From an uncultured Armatimonadia bacterium (GTDB lineage Bacteria > Armatimonadota > Zipacnadia > CAVVLO01): 64,000 bases of DNA. A program made the position numbers and the translations under genes. Shown one piece after another: positions 1 through 12,023 of this stretch. The DNA lies in contig CAVVLO010000002.1 in the NCBI GenBank assembly GCA_963749155.1, positions 1-64,000 on the forward strand, given 5' to 3'. Position 1 is the first letter of the stretch, and the number at the start of each line of letters is the position of its first letter. The notes below the pieces were generated by a model that ran no database searches, was not told where the DNA came from, and was given only the letters and a program-made list of their open reading frames with translations.

Positions 1-57
1 TGCGAGGAGAAGGGAGCGGCAGGCGTGAGTCGACTACTCGAACTCGTGCAAAGGTCG

Positions 58-2444
58 TTACGAAGGCCCATCCGGCTGATCCAAGAGCTCCGGGCGCCCC
101 AGCTTGTCCAGTTCTGCTTGAGCCTTGGCGACGAGGCCCTGTTTCTGATAGACGAGGGCCAGGTTGTAACGCGCCCTTTCATCGTTTGGGGAGAGCTTGA
201 GGGCCTTTAGGAGCTGCACCTCGGCTTCCGACCACTTGCCCTCGTCGATGTACACAGCGCCCAGGTTCGTGAGGACTCGGGGGTCAGTCGGGTCCAGTTC
301 CAGCGCCTTCTGGTACTGGGCAAGGGCCTCGGCGGATCGCCGCTGGGCTCGGTACAGGTTGCCCAGGTAGAACCGGGCCAGCTTGCTCTCTGGTGTCAGC
401 TCCAGACACTTGCGGTAGTCCTGTTCAGCTCCCGCGTATTGCTTCTCGGCAGATCTGAGCTTGCCCCGGCGCAGATAGGCGTCCCCAGGATCAGCGCCGG
501 GGCCGGACCTTGCTTGTCGAGCTTGGCGATCGCCAGGCCTGCCTCTTCGAGCGCCTCCTCGCCCTGCCCCTCGGCCATGAGACCTTCGGCAAGCGCCAGG
601 TGAGCGCTGGGCGAGTCCTCGAGCGCAACGGCCCGCCTATACTCAGCCACAGCCTGCGCGGTATCGCCCAGGTTCGAGTAGACGACTCCCAGGTTGAAGT
701 GCAGGCGCCCGTAGTTCGGCGCCAGGCGGCCAAGCGACTGGTATGCTGAGAGCGCCCCCTCATAATCGCCGGTCATGTTGAGCACGTGGCCCAGCTGGTA
801 GTAGGCGTCAAGCGAGTACGGATCCAGCCTGAGGGCCTCGGTGAGCTGCGTCCCGGCAAGCTCCCACACGCTCTGCTGGCTGGCTAGTCTTCCCTGCTTC
901 AGGTGGTAGCCAGCAGCGAAGGCGCGCACCACCGCTACGCTGCCGAGGACTGCAGCCAGGGCTATCACTACCGACGCTGCTGCCAGCCGGCTGGCCGGCC
1001 AGGCGTTCCCTCTGGCTGTGATAACTGAGGTGCCAGGAGCTTCGCTGCGGTTACTCCGGCTCTGCTGTTCTGCCACCGTAACTAGCGCGAGCAGCAACCA
1101 GAAGAACAGGCCGCCGAACACCCACCTTAGCGTCACGCCTGCCAGGTTCTGCACCATGAACGCCACAAGCCCGCCAAGCGCCCCGCTGGCAAGGTAGCGC
1201 CAGCGGGCCTCGGCCAGGCGAGCCGCCCTCACCGCCGTTACGACGCAGGCAACTGCAAGCCAGAGGAGCAGCCCCAGCCCGATGAGGCCCGTCTCGGCCG
1301 CGGTCTCCAGGAACTCGTTGTGGGCGTGATCCACCATCGTCGCGGCGCCGGTCGAGTAGAACTCGGGCGACTCGAACTCGGGGAAGTGGATCTCGAAGGT
1401 GCCAAGGCCCGCGCCCGTGACGGGATGGGCCTTGAACATCGCAAGCGCCCCATGCCAGATACCAAGGCGCTGCACGTTCGAGGCTTCGTTCGTCTGGAAC
1501 GAAGAGGCAAGTCGTGAGGACATCGACACGGGACTGTGGCCGAGTGTCCAAAGGGTCGCCACCGCGAAGGCGAAAGCCAGCCAGCCGATCCTCAGGTACC
1601 ACGCCTTCCCGGTCTCTTCCGTGGTTGCTCGCTTCAGGCTGAGCAGAAGCCCAGTAACCACGAGCCCCAGCGCCAGCCCAAGCCACGCCGCCCGCGTGTA
1701 GGTGAAGAGCAGGCAGACATACATCAGCAGGGCCAGCGTGCCGGCGGCGAGCCGCCCTGCCCTCGTCTCCGCCTGCACGTGCAACACCACCGCCAGTGGA
1801 AGCAACAGTACCAGCCAGGCCGCAAAGAAAGTGGGATTACCGAAGGAGGAGAGCAGGCGTAGTTCCCTCGGGTACCACTCAATCCAGTCGATGCCCCAGT
1901 GCTGGAGCAACCCGTAGACGCAGGTCAACAGTGACGCGCTCATCACCACTGCCAGCAGCCGGCCCAGTTGCCCTCTCTCGGCCGCCAGATCAACGACCGC
2001 GATATAGAGCAGCGCGTAACCGGCGAGGTGGCCGAGGGCAGTGAGACTGGCGTACAGATAGCCTGACAGCAGCCCCGAGACGACATCCCAGGCGAGCATG
2101 CAGGCAAGGGGCAGGAACAGGGGCGAACGTCCCAGCCTGAGCCGCTCCCCGCGCATCAAGCGGACCGTCAGGAGGACTGCAAGCGCGATCGAGCCGAGGC
2201 CGAAGAGCAGGTCTTTGATGGCGTTGGCGTTCGCCGTGCCCGGCCAGATGGCAAGCGGCACCAGGAAGACCATCAACAGCACGATGGTCTCGCTCGCGCC
2301 CGTGAGCCAGCTCTTGGGGTTGGCGGGGTTTGGTTGAGTACCCGGATGTCTCCTTGCCACGACCCGATGGCCTCCCCGGTGCGCCTTAAGTCGCACACGT
2401 TCTGGCTGTCGTCCTAACGCTGGTTTCGGTGCAGGGCTGTGCAT
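58..2444 (-). CDS. O-antigen ligase (Wzy_C)-like membrane protein with C-terminal TPR repeats; split by a frameshift near 490-510; true start probably downstream of 2444
   Basis: Multi-TM ORF 396..2444 has SSFGNPTFFA, TYTRAAWLG, RLGIW, GAGLGTF and HAHNEFLE motifs, then TPRs. A second frame continues TPRs (DAYLRRG...ARFYLGNLY...ARYNLALVY) to the stop at 58. Confidence 0.85.
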
Positions 2445-2653
2445 ACCTGCTGATAAAGGGACAGCTCCCCCGTGGCCTCAGTGTCCGGGTGCCCAGGTCG
2501 CCTGCCCCCCGGAGCCCCTTGACTGGCAGCTGTGACATCAGCAGGTGAGCACTATGCCAGCTGCAAACCCCGCCAGGGCAGCTAAGAGGGCGGCCGGATC
2601 CAGAGACCGACTGATCGCCAGCGAACCGCCAGGCGGACATGGAGGAGGCCATT

Positions 2654-2815
2654 ATGACTGCTACGCCAGGTATTGCATCACGATCGCTGGGAGCAGTGCG
2701 ACTCGAAGCAGCCCACTTTGCTGGCGAGGTCAGTGATCGCTGCTGGCCCAGGACGCCCCAACTGAAGACCGAACCCGCCTTCGGGAGCGGCCGAGGGGCT
2801 TTCAAGCCGCACTAG
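2654..2815 (+). CDS. Possible 53-aa small protein (MTATPGIASR...)
   Basis: Strong SD GGAGGAGG at 2641-2648, ATG at 2654, TAG at 2813-2815. Below the ORF-track cutoff; no recognised family. Confidence 0.3.
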   Translation: MTATPGIASRSLGAVRLEAAHFAGEVSDRCWPRTPQLKTEPAFGSGRGAFKPH

Positions 2816-3119
2816 CTTACAAAACGCGGTTTTCGTTGTCGCGGTCTTCCTCGAGCAATCGAGTGGCCAAACCTTGCCGCTCGCGGCCCCATTTCACATC
2901 GAGAATCCGGCGAATGAATGGACCGAGTGGCGCGAGTATCGCCAGGAATTTTACGGATCCCAAGTTGACGCAGCCCTCTTGGGACGATCGAGCGTCCAGG
3001 CTCTGCCGAGTGGGCAAGCGCTGGAGCAGGCAGTCATCCCACCGCTCAGGCCCGCTGGGGCGCGCTTGAGGGCCTGTGGGAGGCACGGCCGCCCGCGCTT
3101 CGGCCCAAAGGGCTGATAA

Positions 3120-4080
3120 CAGTGGTTGCGCCTTCCCGGACGCTACTAGATGGCGCTGTGGAGCCAAATATGGCGGCCAGTCATTTATGGTTGGGACTTT
3201 GTGGCCTGGAGAGCGAAAAGCCAGGTTTTTGGGGGGTTTCGGCAGCCAGCCTCGTACCGCCAAGCCGCACCGGTACTGGGATACCAGAATCAGCGGTCGC
3301 AATTGGCCGGATGCCATACTAAGTTATAGAACCAGTTGCGGCCCGACGCGAAGGTACCGGTCACACACCAGGCCTTCTGCAAGGGCAGCTACCGCACCAA
3401 CCCATTGCAAGTCGACCGGTGTCCTGGAAAGCCAGGGGCAAGGGCGCTCTCACCAGAGACAAGCCTGGGCGCGTGATCGTGCCCAGGACGCAAACGCAAG
3501 CGACTGGACGGCAGTCGCGACGAATCGCATGAGCAAGTTGGTGAGCACACTATGGGCCAAAACTCGACGAACGACTATGAAGCAGAGCTTGGACAAGAGG
3601 CAGCGCCTTCCCGCACGCCACCGGATGGCGCTGTGGAGCCAAAGACGGCGGCCAGTGATTTATGGTTGGGCTTTTGCGGCCTGGAGAGGGCAAATTTGAG
3701 GCTTGCGGGGCCTTGCACGGCCAGGCCCATGCCGCCAGGCCGCGCCGGTATTGAAAGGTGCATTGGGCGGACACAAATTCTACCGATGCCACACTGTGTA
3801 TTGAAGGCTCAGTTGCGGCCCGATTCGAAGGCGCCGGTCACGGACCAGGCCTTCTGCAAGGGCAGCTATCGCACGAACCCATCGAGAGCCGACTGGTGTA
3901 CCGGTAAGCCAGGAGCGCTCTCACCAGAGACAAGCCTGGACGTGTGATCGCGCCCAGGACGCTAGCCCAAGCAACAGGACAGCAACCGAGTCGAATCGCA
4001 GTCACGAGTTGGTGATGGAGTATGGGCCAAAGACCTGTGAACGATTACGAAGCAGAGCTCAGACAAGTGGCTACGCCAGA
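3120..4080 (+). repeat. Degenerate tandem repeat, period ~470 bp (about two copies plus the start of a third)
   Basis: TATGGGCCAAA at 3551 and 4021; CAGTTGCGGCCCGA at ~3333 and ~3810; CTCTCACCAGAGACAAGCCTGG at ~3447 and ~3918; GATGGCGCTGTGGAGCCAAA at ~3149 and ~3624. Confidence 0.9.
3552..3947 (+). CDS. Hypothetical 131-aa protein encoded by the repeat unit; the upstream copy (3122-3475) is broken by a stop and frameshift
   Basis: Several synonymous third-position differences between copies in this frame (GAC/GAT, TAC/TAT, ACA/ACG, ACC/ACG, TGT/TGC). Both copies end at the same TGA. Confidence 0.45.
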   Translation: MGQNSTNDYEAELGQEAAPSRTPPDGAVEPKTAASDLWLGFCGLERANLRLAGPCTARPMPPGRAGIERCIGRTQILPMPHCVLKAQLRPDSKAPVTDQAFCKGSYRTNPSRADWCTGKPGALSPETSLDV

Positions 4081-4249
4081 TATCGTGAGGCGTTATGCGC
4101 TGGTGCTCCAGGTGCTCAGGAGAGCCAGAGGGCGCATGGCAGCGGCCCTTGCCCCGGCTGAAACAAGCTGTCCCGGTACTGGAGGTGGTAGGCGATGCGG
4201 TCAGAGCCTGAACCGCAGCAGCTGCCCGAGGAACTCACCGAGGAGCTAG
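4022..4249 (+). CDS. Small basic protein (75 aa) upstream of the recombinase operon
   Basis: SD-like GGTGATGGAG before ATG. N-terminus MGQxxxNDYEAEL is shared with 3552..3947, with synonymous changes. Confidence 0.45.
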   Translation: MGQRPVNDYEAELRQVATPDIVRRYALVLQVLRRARGRMAAALAPAETSCPGTGGGRRCGQSLNRSSCPRNSPRS

Positions 4250-4412
4250 CTCGATGGCTTGCCAGCATGGCTGTCGAGATAGTGCTGAAGAAGCGCCCTG
4301 GCGCCGACGCGAAGGGAGGTGAAAGTCAAGCCCCACCAGCTAGCGAGGGGTGACGTTCTGCTTTCAAACAAGCAGAGTTTAGTATAACCGTGACTCCAAT
4401 TGTTGTATGTTA

Positions 4413-4421
4413 TGCTATAAT
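4413..4421 (+). promoter_or_regulatory. Extended -10 sigma70-type promoter for the recombinase operon
   Basis: Perfect TGnTATAAT (TGCTATAAT) in an AT-rich patch about 255 bp upstream of the first recombinase ORF. Confidence 0.65.
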
Positions 4422-4675
4422 TGCTAGGGGTGCCTGGGAGCTGGTTTTCAAAACGTCCGAGGGGCGGAATCGCGAAATCGCGTTCCACTTGCCAATAAAG
4501 GCCCCCTCAGACGCCAGGAACGGACCGAGCGTGGCATCACGCCTGGCTCCCTGAAACCAGCCCCAGCGCTCTGGCAGAGGAGGTGAAGAAGTCACACTGG
4601 CTCATGAAGGCAGAACGCGAACGCAATACCCGGCCAGTCCGGGCAATCTCACCGATCCTGGATCGGTGACAAGGA

Positions 4676-5221
4676 GTGAAGAAGATAATGGTTACTGCAA
4701 AGCGAAGGGTCGGACTCTATACCCGAGTTTCGACTGACGATCAAGCCAAAGAGGGCTACTCACTGGGCGCCCAGCAACTGGCGTGCCGGGAGTATCTCGA
4801 CCGACTTTACGGCCCCGAGGATTACACCGTTGAGCTCTTCAGTGATGAGGGGCTCTCGGGCAGGCTCGGGTTCCTTCCAGACCACGGCCCCAAGCTCCGG
4901 CCAGGGCTGGTAGCTCTTACCGAAGCCATCGACAAGGGTCATCTCGACGCCGTTATCACCTGGCGCCTGGATCGCCTCAGCGACGATGGACGGGTCTGGT
5001 CGGACTTCCTCCGCGACCAGGTGGAGAAACACCAGCTCGACTTCATCTCGGTAAATGAGAATCTCGATCCCACGACCCCGATGGGCAAGTTCACCGTACA
5101 TATGCTGGCTATCTCGGCCCAATTCTTCGCGGAGTCCACGGCCGAGAATGACAAAGAGTCGATGCAGCAGCGCCGCGAGGCCGGCTACTCAACCGGCGAA
5201 GGAAGGAAGGAGACCATATGA
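4676..5221 (+). CDS. Serine recombinase catalytic-domain-only protein 1 (start may be ATG 4688)
   Basis: YTRVSTDDQ, DEGLSG, RPGL, WRLDRLSD, TPMGKF and helix E. Ends before any DNA-binding domain; ATGA overlap with the next gene. Confidence 0.9.
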   Translation: MKKIMVTAKRRVGLYTRVSTDDQAKEGYSLGAQQLACREYLDRLYGPEDYTVELFSDEGLSGRLGFLPDHGPKLRPGLVALTEAIDKGHLDAVITWRLDRLSDDGRVWSDFLRDQVEKHQLDFISVNENLDPTTPMGKFTVHMLAISAQFFAESTAENDKESMQQRREAGYSTGEGRKETI

Positions 5222-5760
5222 AGACAACTAGCCACAACCGACCTCATGTCGGTCTTTACACCCGAGTTTCGACTGACGAACAAGCCAGAGAGGGCTACTC
5301 ACTGGGCGCCCAGCAACTGGCGTGCCGGGAGTATCTCGACCGACTTTACGGCCCCGAGGATTACACCGTTGAGCTCTTCAGTGATGAGGGGCTCTCGGCC
5401 AGGCTCGGGTTCCTTCCAGACCACGGTCCCAAGCTCCGGCCAGGGCTGGTAGCTCTCGCCGAAGCCATCGACAAGGGTCATCTCGACGCCGTTATCACCT
5501 GGCGTCTGGATCGCCTCAGCGACGATGGACGGGTCTGGTCGGACTTCCTCCGCGACCAGGTGGAGAAACGCCAGCTCGACTTCATCTCGGTTAGCGAGAG
5601 GCTGGACCCCTCGACAACCATCGGCAAGTTCACCGTGCGTATGCTGGCTATCTCGGCCCAGTTTTCTGCGGAGTCCACGGCCGAGAATGTCAAAGAGTCG
5701 ATGCAGCAGTACCGCGAGGCCGGCTACTCAACCGGCGAAGGAAGGACTGAGGCCATATGA
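5218..5760 (+). CDS. Serine recombinase catalytic-domain-only protein 2
   Basis: Near-identical core to protein 1 (YTRVSTDEQ, WRLDRLSD). SD AAGGAG; ATGA overlaps at both ends. Confidence 0.9.
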   Translation: MKTTSHNRPHVGLYTRVSTDEQAREGYSLGAQQLACREYLDRLYGPEDYTVELFSDEGLSARLGFLPDHGPKLRPGLVALAEAIDKGHLDAVITWRLDRLSDDGRVWSDFLRDQVEKRQLDFISVSERLDPSTTIGKFTVRMLAISAQFSAESTAENVKESMQQYREAGYSTGEGRTEAI

Positions 5761-6344
5761 AGACAACTAGCCACAGCAGACCCCGGGTCGGGCTCTACAC
5801 CCGGGTCTCAACTGATGAGCAAGCCAAAGAAGGCTACTCCTTGGGCGCCCAGCAACTGGCGTGCAGGGAGTACCTCGACCGGCTCTATGGACCCGAGGGT
5901 TACAGCCTCGAGCTCTTCAGTGATGAGGGGCTCTCGGGCAGGCTCGGGTTCCTTCCAAACCACGGCCCCAAGCTCCGGCCAGGGCTGGCAGCTCTCGCCG
6001 AAGCGACCGACAAAGGCCAGCTGCAGGCGGTTATCGTCTGGAAGCTGGACCGCCTGGCGCGAGATGCGCGGGTGATGCTGGAGTTCCTCCAGGATCACTT
6101 GCAGAAGCGCCAGGTCGCCCTGATCTCAGTCAGCGAGAAACTGGATCCCTCATCGGCCTTCGGTAACTTCATCGTCGGCATGCTGGCTATCTCGGCCCAA
6201 CTCTTCGCGGAGTCCACGGCCGAGAACGTCAAGGAGTCGATGAAGCGACGGCGCGAGGCCGGCTACCCGACCGGAAGGGTCGGTTATGGCTGGCGTCAGG
6301 GTTACCTGCCCGATGCTGCCGTAGAGGAAGGTGAAGCGCGATGA
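5757..6344 (+). CDS. Serine recombinase catalytic-domain-only protein 3
   Basis: YTRVSTDEQ and canonical WKLDRLAR. Extends to GRVGYGW (start of the LSR linker), then stops; ATGA overlap with 6341. Confidence 0.9.
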   Translation: MKTTSHSRPRVGLYTRVSTDEQAKEGYSLGAQQLACREYLDRLYGPEGYSLELFSDEGLSGRLGFLPNHGPKLRPGLAALAEATDKGQLQAVIVWKLDRLARDARVMLEFLQDHLQKRQVALISVSEKLDPSSAFGNFIVGMLAISAQLFAESTAENVKESMKRRREAGYPTGRVGYGWRQGYLPDAAVEEGEAR

Positions 6345-8135
6345 TTGAGCCGCGGACCAGGCCAGGGATCACGCCCGAACCGGGGCAAGCCGAAGTGGTA
6401 GAGCTGATATTCAGGCTCTACCAGGAAGGTTATGGGCTGGAGTCCGTAGCGCTACAGCTGGAGGGGAGGGGGATACCCTCCCCCTCCGGCCAGCGGCGCT
6501 GGCACGCGGGCGTGGTAAGCAGGATACTCAAGAATCCAGTCCACGCGGGGCTGATAGCCCACGAAGGACAGTTGCTCAGGGGCGCTCACTACGAGCGGCG
6601 GCTGATCGAGCCGGAGGAGTTCATCGCCGTCCAGAAGCTGTTCGACCGATATCGCAAGTTCTCTCCCCGCACCAATGGGTGCACCCGGGCGCCGCTTGCC
6701 CGACTTGTGCGCTGCGCCGAGTGCGGTAGCCAGATGGGCTCTTGTCACTCGAGCGAGAAGTCTGTTGGGTATCGGTGTATGGCGACCCGCCAGCGACGTG
6801 AGTGCAGCTCGAAGCCCTACGCACGAGGTGAATACCTCGAAGCCGCAGTATTCAAGGTGCTCGTTGAACTTGGCAGCACGCCCGAGGTGCTGAAGCAGGC
6901 AAGAAGTGAAGCCCATCACTTGCTTGAGCAACAGCGAGTCAGTGGCAATGATGATGGAGTTCGCGTCCACCGAGAACTCGAAGAGCTTGAACGGCGCGAG
7001 GCGAGGTCGGCAAGAGACTACAGTACCGGCGTGATGCACGAAGAGCTATGGACGAAGACCGCCGAAGCACTCCGCCTCGAACGCGAACGCATCGAAAGCC
7101 GGCTTGCCCAGCTTGAAGTATTGGCCTCCCACGGACGAGGGCCTGTTGATGAGTTCGCAGAGGTTGAAGCGCTGCTGGGTGACTTGCCCAGGCTTTGGGA
7201 GGAAGCCGGTCCCGAGCGCAAGCGCGCGCTATGCGAAAAGCTTATTGAACGTATCGAGGTGGGGCAGGCTGCCGGGCAAGCTTCACGTCGTACTGAGGCT
7301 CAAACAACTGCAGCCGGTCGAGTTCAACCTGCCTGTTGGCAAGCAGTGGCGCAGAGCGCACAGCCCCGAGACCCGGGGCGGGCTTAGTCGACGCGAGCTT
7401 GCCTACCTGGCGCGAGTGGCCGAGGGCTATTCTGATCGCCAGATAGCGAGCCTGTTCGGCGTCGGTCGCGATACCGTTACCTGCTATCGATTAAGGGTCT
7501 ACAAGGTCCTGGGGATTCGAGACAGGGCCGAGGCAGCAAGACTCGCTGCCCCCCAGCTAGAGGAGTGGCGCGAGTTGCTGCCCCTGGAAGGGCGCTGTCA
7601 GAAGTCGACCAGACCGCCCCGAGTGCTTACCGGGTCATTGCTGGCTACGCTCAAGGCAGCGGCAGCAGGCTGCACGGCGCGCGAAGAGGCCCTTGAGCTT
7701 GGTTGCCCCAGAAGCACCATAGAGGGGCGACGAAGCTGGGTGTTGAAGAAACTGGAATCAGCTAGCATGGAGCAGGCCATCTCCAAGGCTCTTGACCTGG
7801 GCGTTATCAGGCCCGAGGAGCCCTCGGTAGAGCTACTAATCTGCGCCTGCAAGCAGCTTGTCGGGGAGGCGGGCAGAGCCCTGCGTGAGCATCACGGGCT
7901 TGGTGAGCCAACTCCTCTGCAGCTAAGTTACCTGGAGCTGCTGCGCCAGGGGCTCAGCGGACCCAGGATCGCCAAACGATACAAGGTGAGCGATGTGGCC
8001 GTGAATGCCACCTTGCGCCGACTCTGGAAGACCCTCGGAGCGGACAACCTTAAGACCGCACTGGAGAGAATCCAGCAACTAGGGCTACCCACCACTACAT
8101 CTGATGCCATAACAGGAGCTGAGAGTAATGCGTAA
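6341..8135 (+). CDS. Large serine recombinase C-terminal half (recombinase domain, zinc ribbon, coiled coil) probably fused to three LuxR-type HTH domains; ORFs 6341..7387 and 7104..8135 join by removing one G at 7261-7264
   Basis: AEVVELIF...RWHAGVVSRILKNPVHAG; CAECG...YRC...C; LIERIEV. Then HTHs LSRRELAYLARVAEGYSDRQIA, LTGSLLATLKAAAAGCTAREEA and PTPLQLSYLELLRQGLSGPRIA. Confidence 0.8.
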
Positions 8136-9768
8136 GCAAGGCAAGTCAAAGCGAGGGCAGCCCTCTGCAGCAGATCCTGCGCAGAAAGCCCGGGCTGTCG
8201 GTTATGTCCGCTGTTCAACCGAAGACCAGGTCCAAGTCGACTACAATACGCTCGAGTCTCAGAAAGACTACATCAGGAGCTATATCGCCGCGGTGCACCC
8301 CGAATGGGAGCTCCTCACTTTCTACGAGGACGCCGGCTTCTCGGGCGGCAATACCAAGCGGCCGGCGCTGCAGTTGATGCTTGCCGATGCGCGCGATGGG
8401 CAGTTCGACTTCGTCGTCACCTACAAGCTGGACCGCATCACCCGCTCACTGTCCGACTTCTTCGAGCTCGACAGCCTGCTCGAGCGTAACGAGGTAAGTT
8501 TCATATCGGTGAAGGAGCAGTTCGACACTTCGGCCCCGATGGGCCGGGCCATGCGCAACATCGCCCTCACCTTCGCCGAACTCGAACGGGAGCTCATCGC
8601 CGAGCGCACGCGCGACAAGATGATGGCACTCGTGAGGCAGGGACGTTGGCCAGGCGGCACGCCACCCTTTGGTTATTCGGTCTGCGACGGAGGGCTAACA
8701 CGTGACGAGAACGAGGCGCCGATCGTGAAGCTCATTTACGAGGAATACCTTAGGACTCGGAGCCTGGCCGCCATCCGCGACAAGCTCGTGGCCCTCGGCA
8801 TAAAGCCGGCCAACTGGAGCACCAAGACCAACCCTGACAAGCGCGTCGTGCACCGCTGGTCCAAGCAGAAGGTAAGCTACATCCTGCAGAATCGCACCTA
8901 CTGCGGCGAACTGAACTATGCTGGCGAAAGGACCGAGAATACCCATCCCGCGATCATAGACCTGGAGACTTATGAACTGGCTCAGCAGCTGTTCGCAGAG
9001 CGTTGTCGTAAACCCAACCTGACTGTAGCCTATGAGTTCCTGCTCACAACCAAAGTCTACTGCGACCATTGCGGGTGCAGGATGTCGCCCCGAGCTACGA
9101 TGCACCCCAACCGGAAGAAGAGCTTCACCGCCTACTATGAATGCTACCGCATAGGCCGCTACCAAGGTATCGAGTGCGACGTCAGGCGCATCAACGGCGA
9201 GTTGCTGGACCAGCTGTTTCTCAACCTCATCGGAGAGCTTGCTGTCGATGAGGAAGCCCTTAGGAAGGCCGCCGCCGAGACCTTGCTCGAGACTGATGCC
9301 GCCACCGCTTCACTGAGGCAAGAGGGGCTGGAACTGGGGCGCAGGCACGACGACCTGCAGGGCAGACTCGAGGAAGTCCTCCAGGCCATCGAGCAGGGTC
9401 TGCGAAGCGATGCCATCCAGGGCAGGCTGAGGAAGCTGGAGACGGACTTGCGTAAAGTGGTGGCTGAACTGGCTGAGGTGAAGCTCAAGCTGCGCGAGGC
9501 CTCGCCCCTCGCTCTGGATGTGGTCGAGGCGAGGGCACTCTTCGCCGAACTAACGGAACTCCTGCCCTTCTGCACGCTGGATGAGAAGCGCCTGCTGGTG
9601 GACGCCCTCGTGAAGCGCATAACCGTCCAGAAAGACAAAACGGTGATCTTCGAGCTCTTTGCAGGCTCAGAAGAACACCGCGTTGTCCAGAACGTTAAGA
9701 GTGGTAGCGCCAAGGGGATTCGAACCCCTGTTACCGGAGTGAGAGTCCAGCGTCCTAGACCGAGCTAG
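8128..9768 (+). CDS. Full-length large serine recombinase (integrase)
   Basis: YVRCST, DAGFSGG, KLDRITR, FAELERELIAERT, GGTPPFGY, ILQNRTYCG, CDHCG...YYEC, coiled coil, LVKRITV. Confidence 0.95.
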   Translation: MRKQGKSKRGQPSAADPAQKARAVGYVRCSTEDQVQVDYNTLESQKDYIRSYIAAVHPEWELLTFYEDAGFSGGNTKRPALQLMLADARDGQFDFVVTYKLDRITRSLSDFFELDSLLERNEVSFISVKEQFDTSAPMGRAMRNIALTFAELERELIAERTRDKMMALVRQGRWPGGTPPFGYSVCDGGLTRDENEAPIVKLIYEEYLRTRSLAAIRDKLVALGIKPANWSTKTNPDKRVVHRWSKQKVSYILQNRTYCGELNYAGERTENTHPAIIDLETYELAQQLFAERCRKPNLTVAYEFLLTTKVYCDHCGCRMSPRATMHPNRKKSFTAYYECYRIGRYQGIECDVRRINGELLDQLFLNLIGELAVDEEALRKAAAETLLETDAATASLRQEGLELGRRHDDLQGRLEEVLQAIEQGLRSDAIQGRLRKLETDLRKVVAELAEVKLKLREASPLALDVVEARALFAELTELLPFCTLDEKRLLVDALVKRITVQKDKTVIFELFAGSEEHRVVQNVKSGSAKGIRTPVTGVRVQRPRPS

Positions 9769-9779
9769 ACGATGGCGCC
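9702..9779 (-). tRNA. tRNA-Glu(CTC)
   Basis: Reverse complement GGCGCCATCGTCTAGCTCGGTCTAGGACGCTGGACTCTCACTCCGGTAACAGGGGTTCGAATCCCCTTGGCGCTACCA: acceptor stem, anticodon CTC, TTCGAA T-loop and encoded CCA. Confidence 0.97.
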
Positions 9780-9790
9780 ACGCGGCGATG

Positions 9791-9819
9791 ATGTTAGCAG
9801 AAGCCCCCAGGGGCGTCAA
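9791..9819 (-). promoter_or_regulatory. sigma70 promoter of tRNA-Glu
   Basis: TTGACG-N17-TAACAT with extended TG. Confidence 0.75.
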
Positions 9820-9874
9820 CACCTCTCAGAGGCTCCCCCAGGGGCTTCCACCTTCTCATAAAGCCTACTGCTGC

Positions 9875-10129
9875 CTAGTTGCAGCTACATCCGCTGCAGC
9901 CACAGTCCGAACCTTTGTCCTCGGCTTCGTCGCTCTCGAGGAAAGCGTTCAACTCGGCTACAAGGGCCTCCACGTCCGTCCCGTGCGCCTCGGCGCCCAT
10001 CTCCAGACTCTCCATACTCGAGATTGGGCAACCGATGCAATGCATCCCATGCTTCAGGAAGATAGGCGCTGTCTCCCGGCTTATCTTCAGTACTTCCGCG
10101 AAAGTCATATCCTTTGTCACTTTTGCCAT
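9875..10129 (-). CDS. DUF1858 (hybrid-cluster-associated redox disulfide) domain protein
   Basis: VTKDMTFAEVL...FLKHGMHCIGC...ESLEMGAEAHG; Cys-rich tail. Confidence 0.85.
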   Translation of the reverse strand: MAKVTKDMTFAEVLKISRETAPIFLKHGMHCIGCPISSMESLEMGAEAHGTDVEALVAELNAFLESDEAEDKGSDCGCSGCSCN

Positions 10130-10145
10130 CTAACTTTCTCCTCCA

Positions 10146-11910
10146 TCAGAACTGGCTTTGCCAGTTGGTTAACTGCAAGAACTCGTCCCAATGGGTCGCA
10201 CTCGACCAGTCCAGCAGGTCGTAGTCGTCATCATAGGCCGACCCATTGTTCAAAACATAAAGCGCTAGCCCTTCGGCATCGATTGAATCAAAAGTCGAAT
10301 GTATCTCGTTTATCACGGCATTCGACACTGCGCTCCTTACATTATCGAGCGCCGACTGCACTCCAGCATCGCTGATCGTCTCCAGCTTATCCGCCAAATC
10401 ATACAGATCGCAAGTTGCAGTCGAGGTATTAAAATCCTCTGCGCCCTGCAAGGCAGTTGCCATCAAGCCCTGATCATTTGGGAATCGGGCAATCAACGCG
10501 TTTGCCAACTGGTCTACTGCAGCAGCCAGGCCAGTCATCTGGCTGAGATCGATTGCCGAAAGCGTCCTGTTGCTGGCGCCTGGATTGTAGCTGTCTGCGT
10601 ATAAATCTACAATCGCTGAAGCCAGTTGTGCTGCAGTAGCAGTTGGATTATCAAGCATCCACTCGATGACAGTGTCATAGGGAAGTCCGTAGGCTGGCAC
10701 TTCGTCTTCAGAAACCACAGCATATTCCGCATAGTCTTTCATTGCGTAACAGACTTCTGCAAAGCCCATCACGCAAGCGTCCATATCCAGTATCTCGACA
10801 TCGCCAGCAGTTGCCAGAGCGCTCTTGAGTTCAGGCAGATTGAGCCAGTCACCGCCATTTGTAGAGTCCTGGCAGATAGCCCGGGTGGGTATCTCCTGGA
10901 CTGCGCGGTAATCCCAGCCTGAGCCGTGATCCCAAAGCACCAGGCAATAATTATCGGCCGGATAATGCTCTTTGGCCCAACTGATGAAATTGGCCAGTGT
11001 AGTCGCACTGCCCATGTTCTGCTCGGGCAAGGTCTCAACGATAGTCGAATTGAGCACACTCAGATTGGTATCTGGTTGCATCTCATAACGCCAGGTGCCT
11101 GTATCGCCAATCCGGTCCCACTGCACGACGACCTTAACGGGGCCTTCAGCCTGAGCCAGCCCATATTCCATTTCTTGCATATCCATCGAGGCATAGGAAT
11201 CCAGGCTGTTGTCGCCATCGAGATAGACCAGGAAGGTCCAGGCGGAGCTTGTAACCGTCACATCAAGCTCGGTGTGGTAGGTGCTCCAGTCCGCGGTTAT
11301 CTTGCCGCTTGCCGATGAGACACCCGCGCCCAGCGCGGCGGTAAAAAGACCGTTGCTATCAATGTCGCCGATGCTTCCGATGACATCCCAGGTCACTGTG
11401 CCCGGGAGCACGATACGAGTACTCCTCGCCCCGGTTCCCAAACTCGTCTACCCCAGCGGCTTCGAACTGCACCTGGGCGCCGGCCGGGATGGCGTTCACG
11501 TCACGGTTCTCTGGTGGCAGAATCACGATGTCAGCAATAGCGCCCACCACAACAGTCACATTGGCAACAGCCACTTTACTCCCAACAGTCGCTACAACTG
11601 TACCGGTTACAGGATCATCGGTGCTGGTTGTTGTGGTAACGCTAAGCAGGCCCTCTCCATCGATGGTGCCGATCCCTCCCGTGACGCTCCAATCGGGATT
11701 TACAGAAACCGGGTTATCTTCTGAATCATAGGCGGTAGCCGTAAACTGGTAATCGGCGCCCGCTATCAGGTTGCCCGAATCGGGCGATATCTCGAGCCTG
11801 GCGATGGAACTGCCGCCGCCTCCCCCACCACAGCCTGCAAGCAAGGACGCGACGAGAATCAGACAACCTAGACCGACCAGTTTGGGCATAAGGGCTGAGC
11901 GCACTGTCAT
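10146..11910 (-). CDS. Clostripain-family (C11) cysteine peptidase lipoprotein with Ig-like repeats; frameshift near 11430
   Basis: Lipobox LLAGC after SD GGAGG; WTFLVYLDGDNSL, catalytic WDHGSGW and DACVM. ORFs 11359..11973 and 10146..11441 join in a G-run. Confidence 0.85.
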
Positions 11911-12023
11911 CTGCGCCTCCATATAATAATATGCTGCGCTAACTTTACCAGATAGGACTGTGCACGTGAACACTGCAGAGCCTCGGAAGGTTTCCTACTG
12001 GAAAGGTAGACGTTTATTTGAGG

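Follow-up and report, generated by a model that had tools for sequence, protein, structure and literature searches.

Serine integrases are treated as self-contained single proteins, both in mechanistic work and in genome engineering. Large serine recombinases (LSRs) like SPbeta SprA and the Bxb1, phiC31, A118/LI and TP901-1 integrases carry a catalytic domain, helix E, a recombinase domain and a zinc ribbon with an inserted coiled coil, in that order, and all described LSRs are, to our knowledge, single chains; our full-text literature search found no natural split LSR. CcrA and CcrB of SCCmec are two serine recombinases encoded in one operon, and both are full-length single chains. A split has been made artificially: phiC31 integrase divided at residue 307 was not reconstituted non-covalently and was active only after intein splicing, as reported (PMC6868429).

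We analysed a window of 64,000 nucleotides (the whole stretch of DNA studied here), and the features listed in Table 1 probably belong to an element integrated at a tRNA-Glu gene and constitute its recombination module, in which a single-chain LSR (gene 5) is accompanied by a conserved two-gene LSR (A3 and B) and by two impaired catalytic paralogues (A1 and A2). Judged from its sequence, A3+B is a previously undescribed two-gene variant of LSR. It has the LSR domains in the LSR order, both catalytic and body, but distributes them over two polypeptides from overlapping genes instead of placing all of them on one, and B adds three LuxR-type HTHs; gene 5 is a standard member of the family. As with CcrA/CcrB, one end of an integrative element carries two neighbouring serine recombinase systems, a likeness that here consists of co-location only; unlike CcrA/CcrB, one of the partners is split and has spare catalytic-domain genes. 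The engineered phiC31 integrase (PMC6868429) likewise consists of an N-terminal and a C-terminal polypeptide, but the natural site differs, following immediately on helix E and the initial strand of the recombinase domain, and no intein is involved.

Table 1. Features of the recombination module, in positions of the window
Feature	Coordinates	Strand	Basis or remark
A1, truncated catalytic-domain paralogue, 177 aa	4688..5221	+	ORF call, Pfam, alignment
A2, second truncated catalytic-domain paralogue, 180 aa, A1 type	5218..5760	+	ORF call, Pfam, alignment
A3, full catalytic subunit (candidate), 195 aa	5757..6344	+	ORF call, Pfam, alignment
Tandem array, three units, exact 539-nt period	4709..6274	+	self-comparison
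B, N-terminal part as assembled: recombinase domain, zinc ribbon (4 Cys), coiled coil	6341..7387	+	Pfam, model
GGG run, frame break inside B	7274..7276	+	one base more than contigs of X1, X3, X5
B, C-terminal part, shifted frame: three LuxR/GerE-like HTH repeats	7275..8135	+	Pfam, homology
Gene 5, intact LSR, 546 aa	8128..9768	+	ORF call, Pfam
tRNA-Glu(CTC)	9702..9779	-	probable integration target of module

The same-strand ORFs described in the initial annotation were seen again in the ORF lists, together with their ATGA overlaps at 5218, 5757 and 6341, an 8-nt overlap at 8128-8135 and SD-like GGAG or AAGG runs 4-11 nt 5′ of every start. Genes 1-3 do encode the catalytic domain alone: Pfam found Resolvase (PF00239) and nothing else, with no C-terminal HTH of the small serine recombinases (resolvase/invertase) in A1-A3 and no DNA-binding domain in A1 or A2. 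The start of A1, whose 5′ end is unlike that of A2 and A3, had been placed at a GTG at 4676 that lies inside the SD run, and the ATG at 4688 is likelier, giving a protein of the length of database gene call P0004. Gene 5 is an intact LSR as proposed, with Resolvase, Recombinase and Zn_ribbon_recom (E 8e-39, 4.5e-19 and 1.3e-8) on 8128-9765 and no stop within its frame, and is 69% identical (257/371) to an LSR paralogue at a second locus of the same genome (C1). Its last 22 codons are antisense to the tRNA-Glu(CTC) gene, and A, B and an LSR are co-located at three genomic loci (the window, C1 and G372).

Gene 4 (B) had been read as a single frame from 6341 to 8135 encoding only the recombinase, zinc-ribbon and coiled-coil half of an LSR. 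Those domains are present in 6341-7384 (PF07508, E 6e-15; PF13408, E 7e-11), but three HTHs and a frame break had been overlooked: the frame opened at 6341 stops at 7387 after an out-of-frame tail of 38 codons, and the end at 8135 belongs to another frame (ORF 7104-8135), in which Pfam detects the LuxR/GerE-type HTH (PF00196, E 5e-17). Short Logan contigs were used for the cross-sample check of this site and of the array, and in those of X1, X3 and X5 one base fewer at 7274 yields a single B frame of 597 codons; a recent mutation or an error in the assembly would account for the extra G. The C-terminus of B is homologous to those of its C1 paralogue, of P0123-P0125 and of the G372 B, and C125, C128, C146 and C155 are invariant in the alignment of relatives. 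Two long helices span 181-228 and 234-263 in the B model (pLDDT 74.7), which Foldseek matched to the SPbeta, Bxb1, phiC31 and A118 integrases, best to 9dxh (E 4.5e-10).

The separation of A from B recurs beyond the window. In all four readable loci of the clade the break falls in the same linker: the window; C1, with an A of 190 aa and a B 46% identical (142/310) to that of the window; G372, a complete genome of another class, with an A of 193 aa and an intact B carrying three HTHs; and L039, a metagenome contig with A and the start of B, overlapping by 8 nt. Across these loci the overlap of A and B ranges from 4 to 14 nt, and a GGAGG-like SD lies inside A, at most about 6 nt upstream of the B ATG, in each of the four. 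In an exhaustive search of cluster representatives with B(1-311), the fragment P0001 being left out of the ranking, the four best matches (P0123, 617 aa; P0124, 583 aa; P0125, 593 aa; P0126, 258 aa; 34-40% identity) align from the N-terminus of B (target residues 1-9), that is, they are B-only proteins, and the next matches are mostly fused, with alignments from about residue 190-200 (for example P0128, 815 aa, and P0129, 784 aa). Conversely, the stand-alone A proteins P0003, P0006 and P0007 have 191-196 aa and end 8-20 residues past GYGW. Both halves change more slowly at non-synonymous than at synonymous sites (A3 against the C1 A, pN 0.32 and pS 0.75; B against the C1 B, pN 0.37 and pS 0.77). 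The proposal of a natural LSR split into catalytic and DNA-binding subunits is thus borne out at the four loci and, P0001 aside, in the four closest B representatives, and the search for homologous loci found A next to a B-only gene in C1, G372 and L039, with fused forms among more distant relatives.

Those fused LSR-HTH proteins of the same class (loci L006 and L120; P0128, P0129) have a homologous catalytic domain, recombinase domain, zinc ribbon, coiled coil and GerE-type HTHs, and the linker YGWR...RP.I.PEP is still recognisable in them; unlike the split A and B they form one ORF of 675-861 aa, and at the two loci read, L006 and L120, the neighbour is an upstream tyrosine recombinase gene in place of the downstream LSR of the window. 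The comparison of the four split loci indicates that the A|B split is not decay but a conserved arrangement. Because the A family is rare (of 401 genomes sampled from the phylum 2 have a split A, G000 counted, as does 1 of the 53 from the G372 class), this conservation rests on few lineages.

The catalytic genes are spaced start to start by 539 and 539 nt with zero indels, A1 being 93% and A3 81% identical to A2; identity among the copies is mosaic, and the unit junction shows GGAAGG microhomology. Among the three, only A3 looks like a working catalytic subunit: it retains Y-x-R-V-S, DRLAR and the C-terminal GRVGYGW strand, matches PF00239 (E 9e-27) and can be aligned with TP901-1 integrase and Gin. 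All 6 A-type sequences share Y-x-R-V-S and D-R-L-x-R without change, and the active-site residues presumably have the roles established in work on gamma-delta/Tn3 resolvase. A1, A2 and P0005, an A1-type orthologue from another sample, carry Asp at the second Arg of DRLxR (DRLSDD against DRL[AGS]R, with Arg in 6/6 A-type sequences). Moreover, A1 ends in GYSTGEGRKETI before its stop, and both A1 and A2 terminate in GYSTGEGR(K/T)E(T/A)I, short of the invariant G-x-G-W strand and missing the invariant P171, G176, G178 and W179; P0005 has the same GEGRKETI end and stop. Lacking a catalytic Arg and this strand, A1 and A2 are unlikely to cut DNA or to dock on B, and the initial idea of three stand-alone catalytic subunits serving as alternative modules does not hold for them.

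The initial annotation had required purifying selection on the extra copies, and dN/dS between A1 and A2 is 0.30, a number that is weakened because gene conversion among the copies can mimic constraint. The two differ by 14 amino acids against 22.1 +/- 2.4 under neutral simulation, with 1 of 5000 simulations as low, and constraint on them is, by these estimates, relaxed but non-neutral. Alignment with relatives indicates that the A copies exchange segments by gene conversion, A3 included, and the 3′ segment is lineage-specific and common to A1-type and A3-type copies (P0005 and P0003). A different dead paralogue, A′, truncated and with the catalytic Ser changed to Ala, immediately precedes A in G372, where it is intact at 167 aa, and in L039, where it has one in-frame stop; dN/dS between these two loci is 0.37 for A′ and 0.12 for A (dS 0.84 for A). 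Because a dead paralogue thus also stands upstream of A in the other lineage, it is possible that A1 and A2 are non-catalytic accessory proteins.

It may be that the initial annotation was right in full, and that A1 and A2 function as subunits of a heteromeric recombinase, non-catalytic or alternative, that bind A3 or the downstream LSR and set its activity or direction, but we consider this doubtful. Both ORFs are intact and the period is exact despite 7-19% divergence, and neutral mutation, when simulated, creates a stop in 65% of sets (A1/A2) and in up to 95% (against A3). The A1 type is retained in P0005, residues 38-100 differing at 6 of 63 positions between A1 and P0005 and at 11 of 63 between A3 and P0003; in X1, 18 of 520 nt differ in the contig over an A1/A2-type copy, against 78 of 895 in B. 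The low dN/dS and the independent A′ point in the same direction. However, A1 and A2 have no strand to tether them to B and no catalytic Arg, each carries private changes at positions invariant across the A family, the paralogous C1 module has no extra copy, A′ of L039 is interrupted, and gene conversion can produce the appearance of constraint. A1 and A2 inherited their ATGA overlaps and SDs with the duplicated unit, so these features do not point to selection. Nor do we think that the triplication or the frame breaks arose in assembly, which is very improbable: the assembly has seven contigs and an estimated contamination of 5.87%, the 7274 break is a difference in homopolymer length, and the array is covered by the assembly and by short contigs only, but the A copies differ by 7% and 19% and so are not collapsed or expanded identical repeats. 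Three Logan contigs of run X2, which may be the source sample of the assembly, are 100% identical to 4928-5200 (A1-specific), 6288-6438 (the A3|B junction) and 6426-6576, a contig of X1 links the A1 5′ end, an A2-like body and the start of the next copy, and A1-type (P0005) and A3-type (P0003) proteins occur separately in other samples.

Everything upstream of the intact LSR could also be the functionless wreckage of a once-fused LSR, produced by frameshifts and slipped tandem duplication. Frame breaks occur in B at 7274, in the C1 B (after HTH1), in the C1 LSR and in the G372 LSR, which means that decay has set in for some copies at least, and the A|B break might in principle be an ancient lesion that has been tolerated; moreover, the fused relatives are the common form in the class, and A1 and A2 are truncated and impaired. 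We nevertheless regard this reading as improbable, since the break recurs in one linker at every readable locus, each of which supplies B with an SD and a start codon, split forms cover 34-75% identity in B, both A and B are under strong purifying selection, and the 7274 break is missing from three related contigs. Programmed ribosomal frameshifting, which would fuse A and B into one protein, is suggested by two adjacent, overlapping genes in different frames, and is the least probable of the alternatives: the shift needed varies, with B at +2 relative to A in the window and at +1 in the other three loci, a stop 3-5 codons upstream of the B ATG closes the B frame in three of the four loci, the A|B junction of the window shows no obvious slippery heptamer, and B has its own SD and ATG at every locus.

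In the two-gene LSR that we favour, A3 would supply the catalytic domain, helix E and the first recombinase-domain strand (GRVGYGW), and B the remainder: recombinase domain, zinc ribbon, coiled coil and the three extra LuxR-type HTHs. The gene anatomy, the conserved split and the selection estimates are observations; from them we infer that A3 and B associate, that the pair is active and that A1 and A2 may have some role. Translation of A3 and B would be coupled through the ATGA overlap and the B SD inside A3 and be followed by non-covalent association, in which the C-terminal strand of A3 probably completes the recombinase domain of B; B would then position A3 on DNA, and A3 dimers and tetramers would cut and rotate subunits as in any serine recombinase, next to gene 5 as an ordinary single-chain integrase. 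Prediction of the hetero-oligomer, which the initial annotation had suggested, gave B(1-180) with A3 a score of 0.32 (best control 0.00). Among solved complexes 116 of 157 scored at least this high, as did 2 of 215 mismatches, but scores of 0.60 or less were rarely right; at least 87% of contacts are shared between runs, with partner pLDDT of at least 71. The score thus exceeds the control and gives the association weak support, and because full-length LSR structures exist the pass may reflect likeness to them. A1 and A2 would be products of a tandem duplication that copied the 5′ 539 nt of gene A by way of the GGAAGG microhomology. Either gene conversion with A3 now keeps them open while they slowly decay, or they are non-catalytic partners that bind A3 through helix E and damp it. 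Recombination directionality factors, a conceivable role for A1/A2 or B, bind the coiled coil of an integrase and switch its direction; their families are diverse and are not known to share a signature. A tentative extension is a multi-subunit recombinase of A, B with its three extra HTHs and, in several lineages, one or two dead paralogues (A1/A2, and A′ in G372 and L039), which would enter the A oligomer as a built-in brake or directionality switch; we know of no such protein-level control in serine recombinases.

If the two-gene reading is true, the catalytic head and the DNA-binding body of an LSR can assemble non-covalently and are kept apart under selection, and the natural cut point is pinpointed after helix E and the first recombinase-domain strand. 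Such genes would then be a natural source of components for recombinases whose heads or bodies can be exchanged. Moreover, two sub-lineages have impaired head-only paralogues in front of their catalytic gene, a hint that decoy subunits may exert control.

Reading of the open frames bears out the gene coupling that the initial annotation had described for 4676..9768 as a multi-subunit serine recombinase operon, with ATGA overlaps at 5218, 5757 and 6341, an 8-nt overlap at 8128-8135 and SD-like purine runs ahead of all starts. Pfam finds the Resolvase catalytic domain alone in each of the first three genes (tandem copies A1, A2 and A3 of a catalytic-domain gene, A), as had been proposed, and the fifth gene is indeed an intact large serine recombinase (LSR) of 546 aa with all three LSR domains. 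The fourth gene (B, the DNA-binding body) does carry the recombinase domain and zinc ribbon attributed to it, but its frame is not open from 6341 to 8135, and an HTH region had been overlooked. Rfam over 1-12000 gave nothing but the tRNA.

Features of the recombinase module, its neighbours and related loci (window positions unless a locus is named)
Feature	Position	Strand	Assignment
O-antigen-ligase/TPR membrane protein gene	396-2444	-	Pfam Wzy_C
A1 ORF	4676/4688-5221	+	Pfam Resolvase catalytic domain only
A2 ORF	5218-5760	+	Pfam Resolvase catalytic domain only
A3 ORF	5757-6344	+	Pfam Resolvase catalytic domain only
B first-frame ORF	6341-7387	+	Pfam Recombinase + zinc ribbon (6341-7384)
B second-frame ORF (other frame)	7104-8135	+	Pfam GerE/LuxR HTH (7104-8132)
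LSR ORF	8128-9768	+	Pfam, all three LSR domains (8128-9765)
tRNA-Glu(CTC)	9702-9779	antisense	under final 22 LSR codons
LSR-into-tRNA stretch, window	9702-9768
LSR-into-tRNA stretch, L004 (paralogous locus on contig C1)	3941-4425
LSR-into-tRNA stretch, L160 (locus of genome G372)	5393-5466
Clostripain-family gene, just past the tRNA	10146-11441	-	Peptidase_C11

We searched for homologous loci with separate catalytic and DNA-binding genes, and those on another contig of the same genome (C1), in the complete genome G372 from another class of the phylum and on the metagenome contig L039 are all split as in the window. PF00239 matches in the own genome lie at 6 places, 4 in the window and 2 on C1. 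At the C1 locus, A (190 aa) and B are followed by a frameshifted LSR and tRNA-Gln; the C1 B is a 548-aa ORF with recombinase domain, zinc ribbon, coiled coil and HTH1, followed by a frame break and HTH2-3. In G372, A' (167 aa, a different and dead A-type paralogue) comes first, then A (193 aa) and B, which is intact and has three HTHs, then a frameshifted LSR and tRNA-Asn. On L039, A' and A (193 aa) precede the beginning of B, which overlaps A by 8 nt. At 4 of 4 junctions A ends 8-15 residues past G-[YF]-G-W-R, and B always starts a few residues before R-x-R-P-G-[IV]. Programmed frameshifting could also join A and B across such junctions, a reading that we rate low; a GGAGG-like SD lies within about 6 nt upstream of the B ATG in all four, and the B frame is closed by a stop 3-5 codons upstream in three of them. 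Between G372 and L039, dN/dS of A is 0.12 at dS 0.84; A3 and the A of C1 differ by pN 0.32 vs pS 0.75 (saturated), and the two B sequences of this genome, with 142/310 identical residues, by pN 0.37 vs pS 0.77.

The same division was seen in databases. When B(1-311) was searched against 1.84 billion protein representatives, the best matches, the fragment P0001 aside, were four B-only proteins (P0123, 617 aa; P0124, 583 aa; P0125, 593 aa; and P0126, truncated at 258 aa), whose alignments begin at target residues 1-9, followed mainly by fused LSRs that match from residue ~190-200. Among the fused proteins, P0128 (815 aa) and P0129 (784 aa) likewise end in the three HTHs, and stand-alone A proteins are also known (P0003, P0006 and P0007; 191-196 aa). 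Among 79 genomes of the class, the split form was found in the present genome alone; fused LSR-HTH genes occur in 21 others, their open frames spanning ~534-861 aa, mostly 675-745. Split-type A (E below 1e-80) was present in a 401-genome sample of the phylum only in this genome and G372, and in 1 of 53 genomes of the G372 class. No relative was found in an initial metagenome scan with B or in a scan of viral contigs, and in a genome-contig scan with A3 all matches were generic LSRs, with identity of <=35% except for 44% over a short stretch. Shared junctions, database relatives, surveys and selection figures together show a clade with an inherited split and both halves under purifying selection; the A/B split is conserved and not debris. 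To our knowledge, described LSRs are single chains. Full-text literature searches, judged mostly from listings and abstracts, gave no natural split serine recombinase. In one report, phiC31 integrase halves split at 307 did not complement without intein splicing (PMC6868429). Directly upstream of fused LSR-HTH relatives in two other genera lies a tyrosine recombinase gene (locus L006, 1-540; locus L120, 1-516), and at one of the two an rve-type transposase follows further downstream.

The frame of the window's B changes near 7274. In the B of C1 the coiled coil runs straight into the HTH region with no frame change there, and this protein aligns with window frame 1 up to ...RIEVGQAA and with frame 2 from KLHVVLRLK... 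on. Moreover, contigs of three sequencing runs (X1, X3 and X5) have one base fewer at 7274, within the GGG run 7274-7276, the X5 piece showing just 4 further differences from the window in 232 nt; contigs of run X2, which match the window at 100%, do not extend over 7274. Because relatives lack this base and the B of C1 is in one frame here, B is by nature one protein of about 597 aa, in which three LuxR-like HTH repeats follow the recombinase domain, zinc ribbon and coiled coil. In the window it carries a one-base insertion, which may be either a real mutation or an assembly error.

In the structure model of B (pLDDT 74.7), the helical and beta elements of the recombinase domain and zinc ribbon are present, together with two long helices (181-228 and 234-263), and Foldseek matched it to SPbeta SprA (9dxh, E 4.5e-10) and to the Bxb1, phiC31 and A118 integrases; A3 aligns with the catalytic domain of TP901-1 integrase and with Gin. 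Complex prediction of B(1-180) with A3 scored 0.32, the best of 3 controls scoring 0.00; of solved complexes 116 of 157 attain that mark, and of mismatches 2 of 215, but most passes <=0.60 are wrong. Contact agreement between runs was at least 87% and partner pLDDT at least 71, and the prediction gave no interface. Since full-length LSR structures exist, the pass may reflect likeness to them, and the prediction weakly suggests that A3 and B may associate. From the position of the cut, the GRVGYGW strand of A3 would complete the recombinase domain of B.

The order A-B-LSR recurs in three genomic loci, and in all three the LSR ORF enters a tRNA gene on the opposite strand, Glu in the window, Gln on C1 and Asn in G372. 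Thus target DNA supplies the final codons of the integrase, whose last residues would differ after excision. The window and C1 LSRs are 69% identical (257/371), and their likeness stops at the tRNA 3' end (...QNVKSG vs ...QNVKDG), which places the module right at the terminus of elements inserted at tRNA 3' ends. Beyond the tRNA itself, the window has no second copy of the 3' or middle part of tRNA-Glu (<=3 mismatches), no convincing att repeat emerged from short blast across the genome (a 20-nt match on contig C5 is not a tRNA), and these tRNA-repeat and att searches did not find the other (left) end of the element. We found no evidence of cooperation of A-B with the LSR.

Around the module, GC falls to 0.54 in 10001-12000. 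Window 1-2843 shares 98.4% identity with C1:953944-956789, a stretch that borders the paralogous module in the same relative orientation. The end of C1 (956786-982451) is crowded with large repeats, both inverted and direct (6.9 kb and 3.1 kb, about 97%), and a 0.3-0.9 kb repeat family at this end also occurs on C3, C4, C5 and C6, often near contig ends. The window contig starts exactly where a 6.9-kb repeat begins on C1, so the assembly probably broke on a repeat. Just upstream of the recombinase genes, 3121-4077 (partly to about 4100) is a second tandem duplication, its two units of about 470-477 nt being 76-84% identical, while a third shares the first ~60 nt only. Its small ORFs start MGQ..NDYEAEL and have no Pfam match, Rfam gives no RNA family there, and Pfam found nothing for the small ORFs at 3552-4246 or a 405-aa ORF of C1.

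A1-A3 form a tandem array without indels in which both spacings are exactly 539 nt, copies 1 and 3 being 93% and 81% identical to copy 2; it was measured by repeat search and blastn, because Tandem Repeats Finder, with a longest period of 500, below the 539-nt unit, gave 0 rows. The duplicated unit begins ~20 nt ahead of the ATG and reaches codon ~170, and the array junction (...ACCGG followed by CGAAGGAAGG...) has GGAAGG in common with the continuation of copy 3 (ACCGGAAGGGTC), which fits a slipped or illegitimate tandem duplication. SD, ATG and ATGA stop of A1 and A2 travel with this unit and thus are no evidence of design. The 5' end of copy 1 is unlike those of copies 2 and 3, whose N-terminus (MKTTSH.RP.VGLY) resembles that of the A of C1 (MKPLTRPRVGLY) and is hence the older one. 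We rate low that the triplication or the frame breaks are artefacts of assembly, where the read evidence consists of Logan contigs (best share of words among runs 0.14). P0005, from another sample, is of A1 type, with the same 5' end, DRLSDD and the GEGRKETI stop, and in an X1 contig the A1 5' end is linked to a body of A2 type (18 differences/520 nt) and to the start of the next copy, which fits another copy number or another mosaic in a relative, though contigs cannot count copies. Residues 38-100 group A1, A2 and P0005 against A3 and P0003, and at residues 102-156 P0005 groups with P0003; this switch indicates that copies exchange segments within the lineage.

The triplicated head gene is real, and two copies are impaired. 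Three alternative catalytic modules, as first suggested, do not hold up, because A1 and A2 have Asp for the second Arg of DRLxR, which is Arg in A3 and in 6/6 A-type sequences, and end before the invariant G176, G178 and W179; they also have Ser at the invariant Pro171. Over 159 aligned codons A1 and A2 differ with dS 0.154, dN 0.046 and dN/dS 0.30, and show 14 amino-acid differences against 22.1 +/- 2.4 expected under neutrality, a value as low in 1 of 5000 simulations; neutral simulations created a stop in 65%. The differences are clustered, and private changes fall at sites invariant throughout the A family (E21D, L149F and V158D in A1; G61A, L149F, F150S and R165Y in A2). These copies may be either remnants that conversion keeps open or decoys under weak selection, and a real accessory role for them seems doubtful.

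A' of G372 and L039 lies directly upstream of A and overlaps it, and is derived from A (37% identity, 56/150 aligned residues) while differing from A1/A2. Ala replaces its catalytic Ser (Y-x-R-T-A-S), and the protein stops short of helix E; the ORF is intact in G372 but interrupted by one in-frame stop in L039, with dN/dS between the two of 0.37, against 0.12 for A. Upstream of A' in L039 (7-1026), a 339-aa ORF has two stretches resembling excisionase-type HTHs, with no Pfam match at E <=0.001. The C1 module has no impaired head-only paralogue.

The initial observation is thus partly confirmed and its interpretation partly supported; whatever is said here on the activity of the recombinases, we infer. 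What stands firm is a conserved two-gene LSR, its body carrying three HTHs, beside a standard tRNA-targeting LSR. With A1/A2 in the window and A' in G372 and L039, an impaired head-only paralogue ahead of A arose or was kept at least twice, and this recurrence is the strongest hint that dead heads may control the A oligomer.
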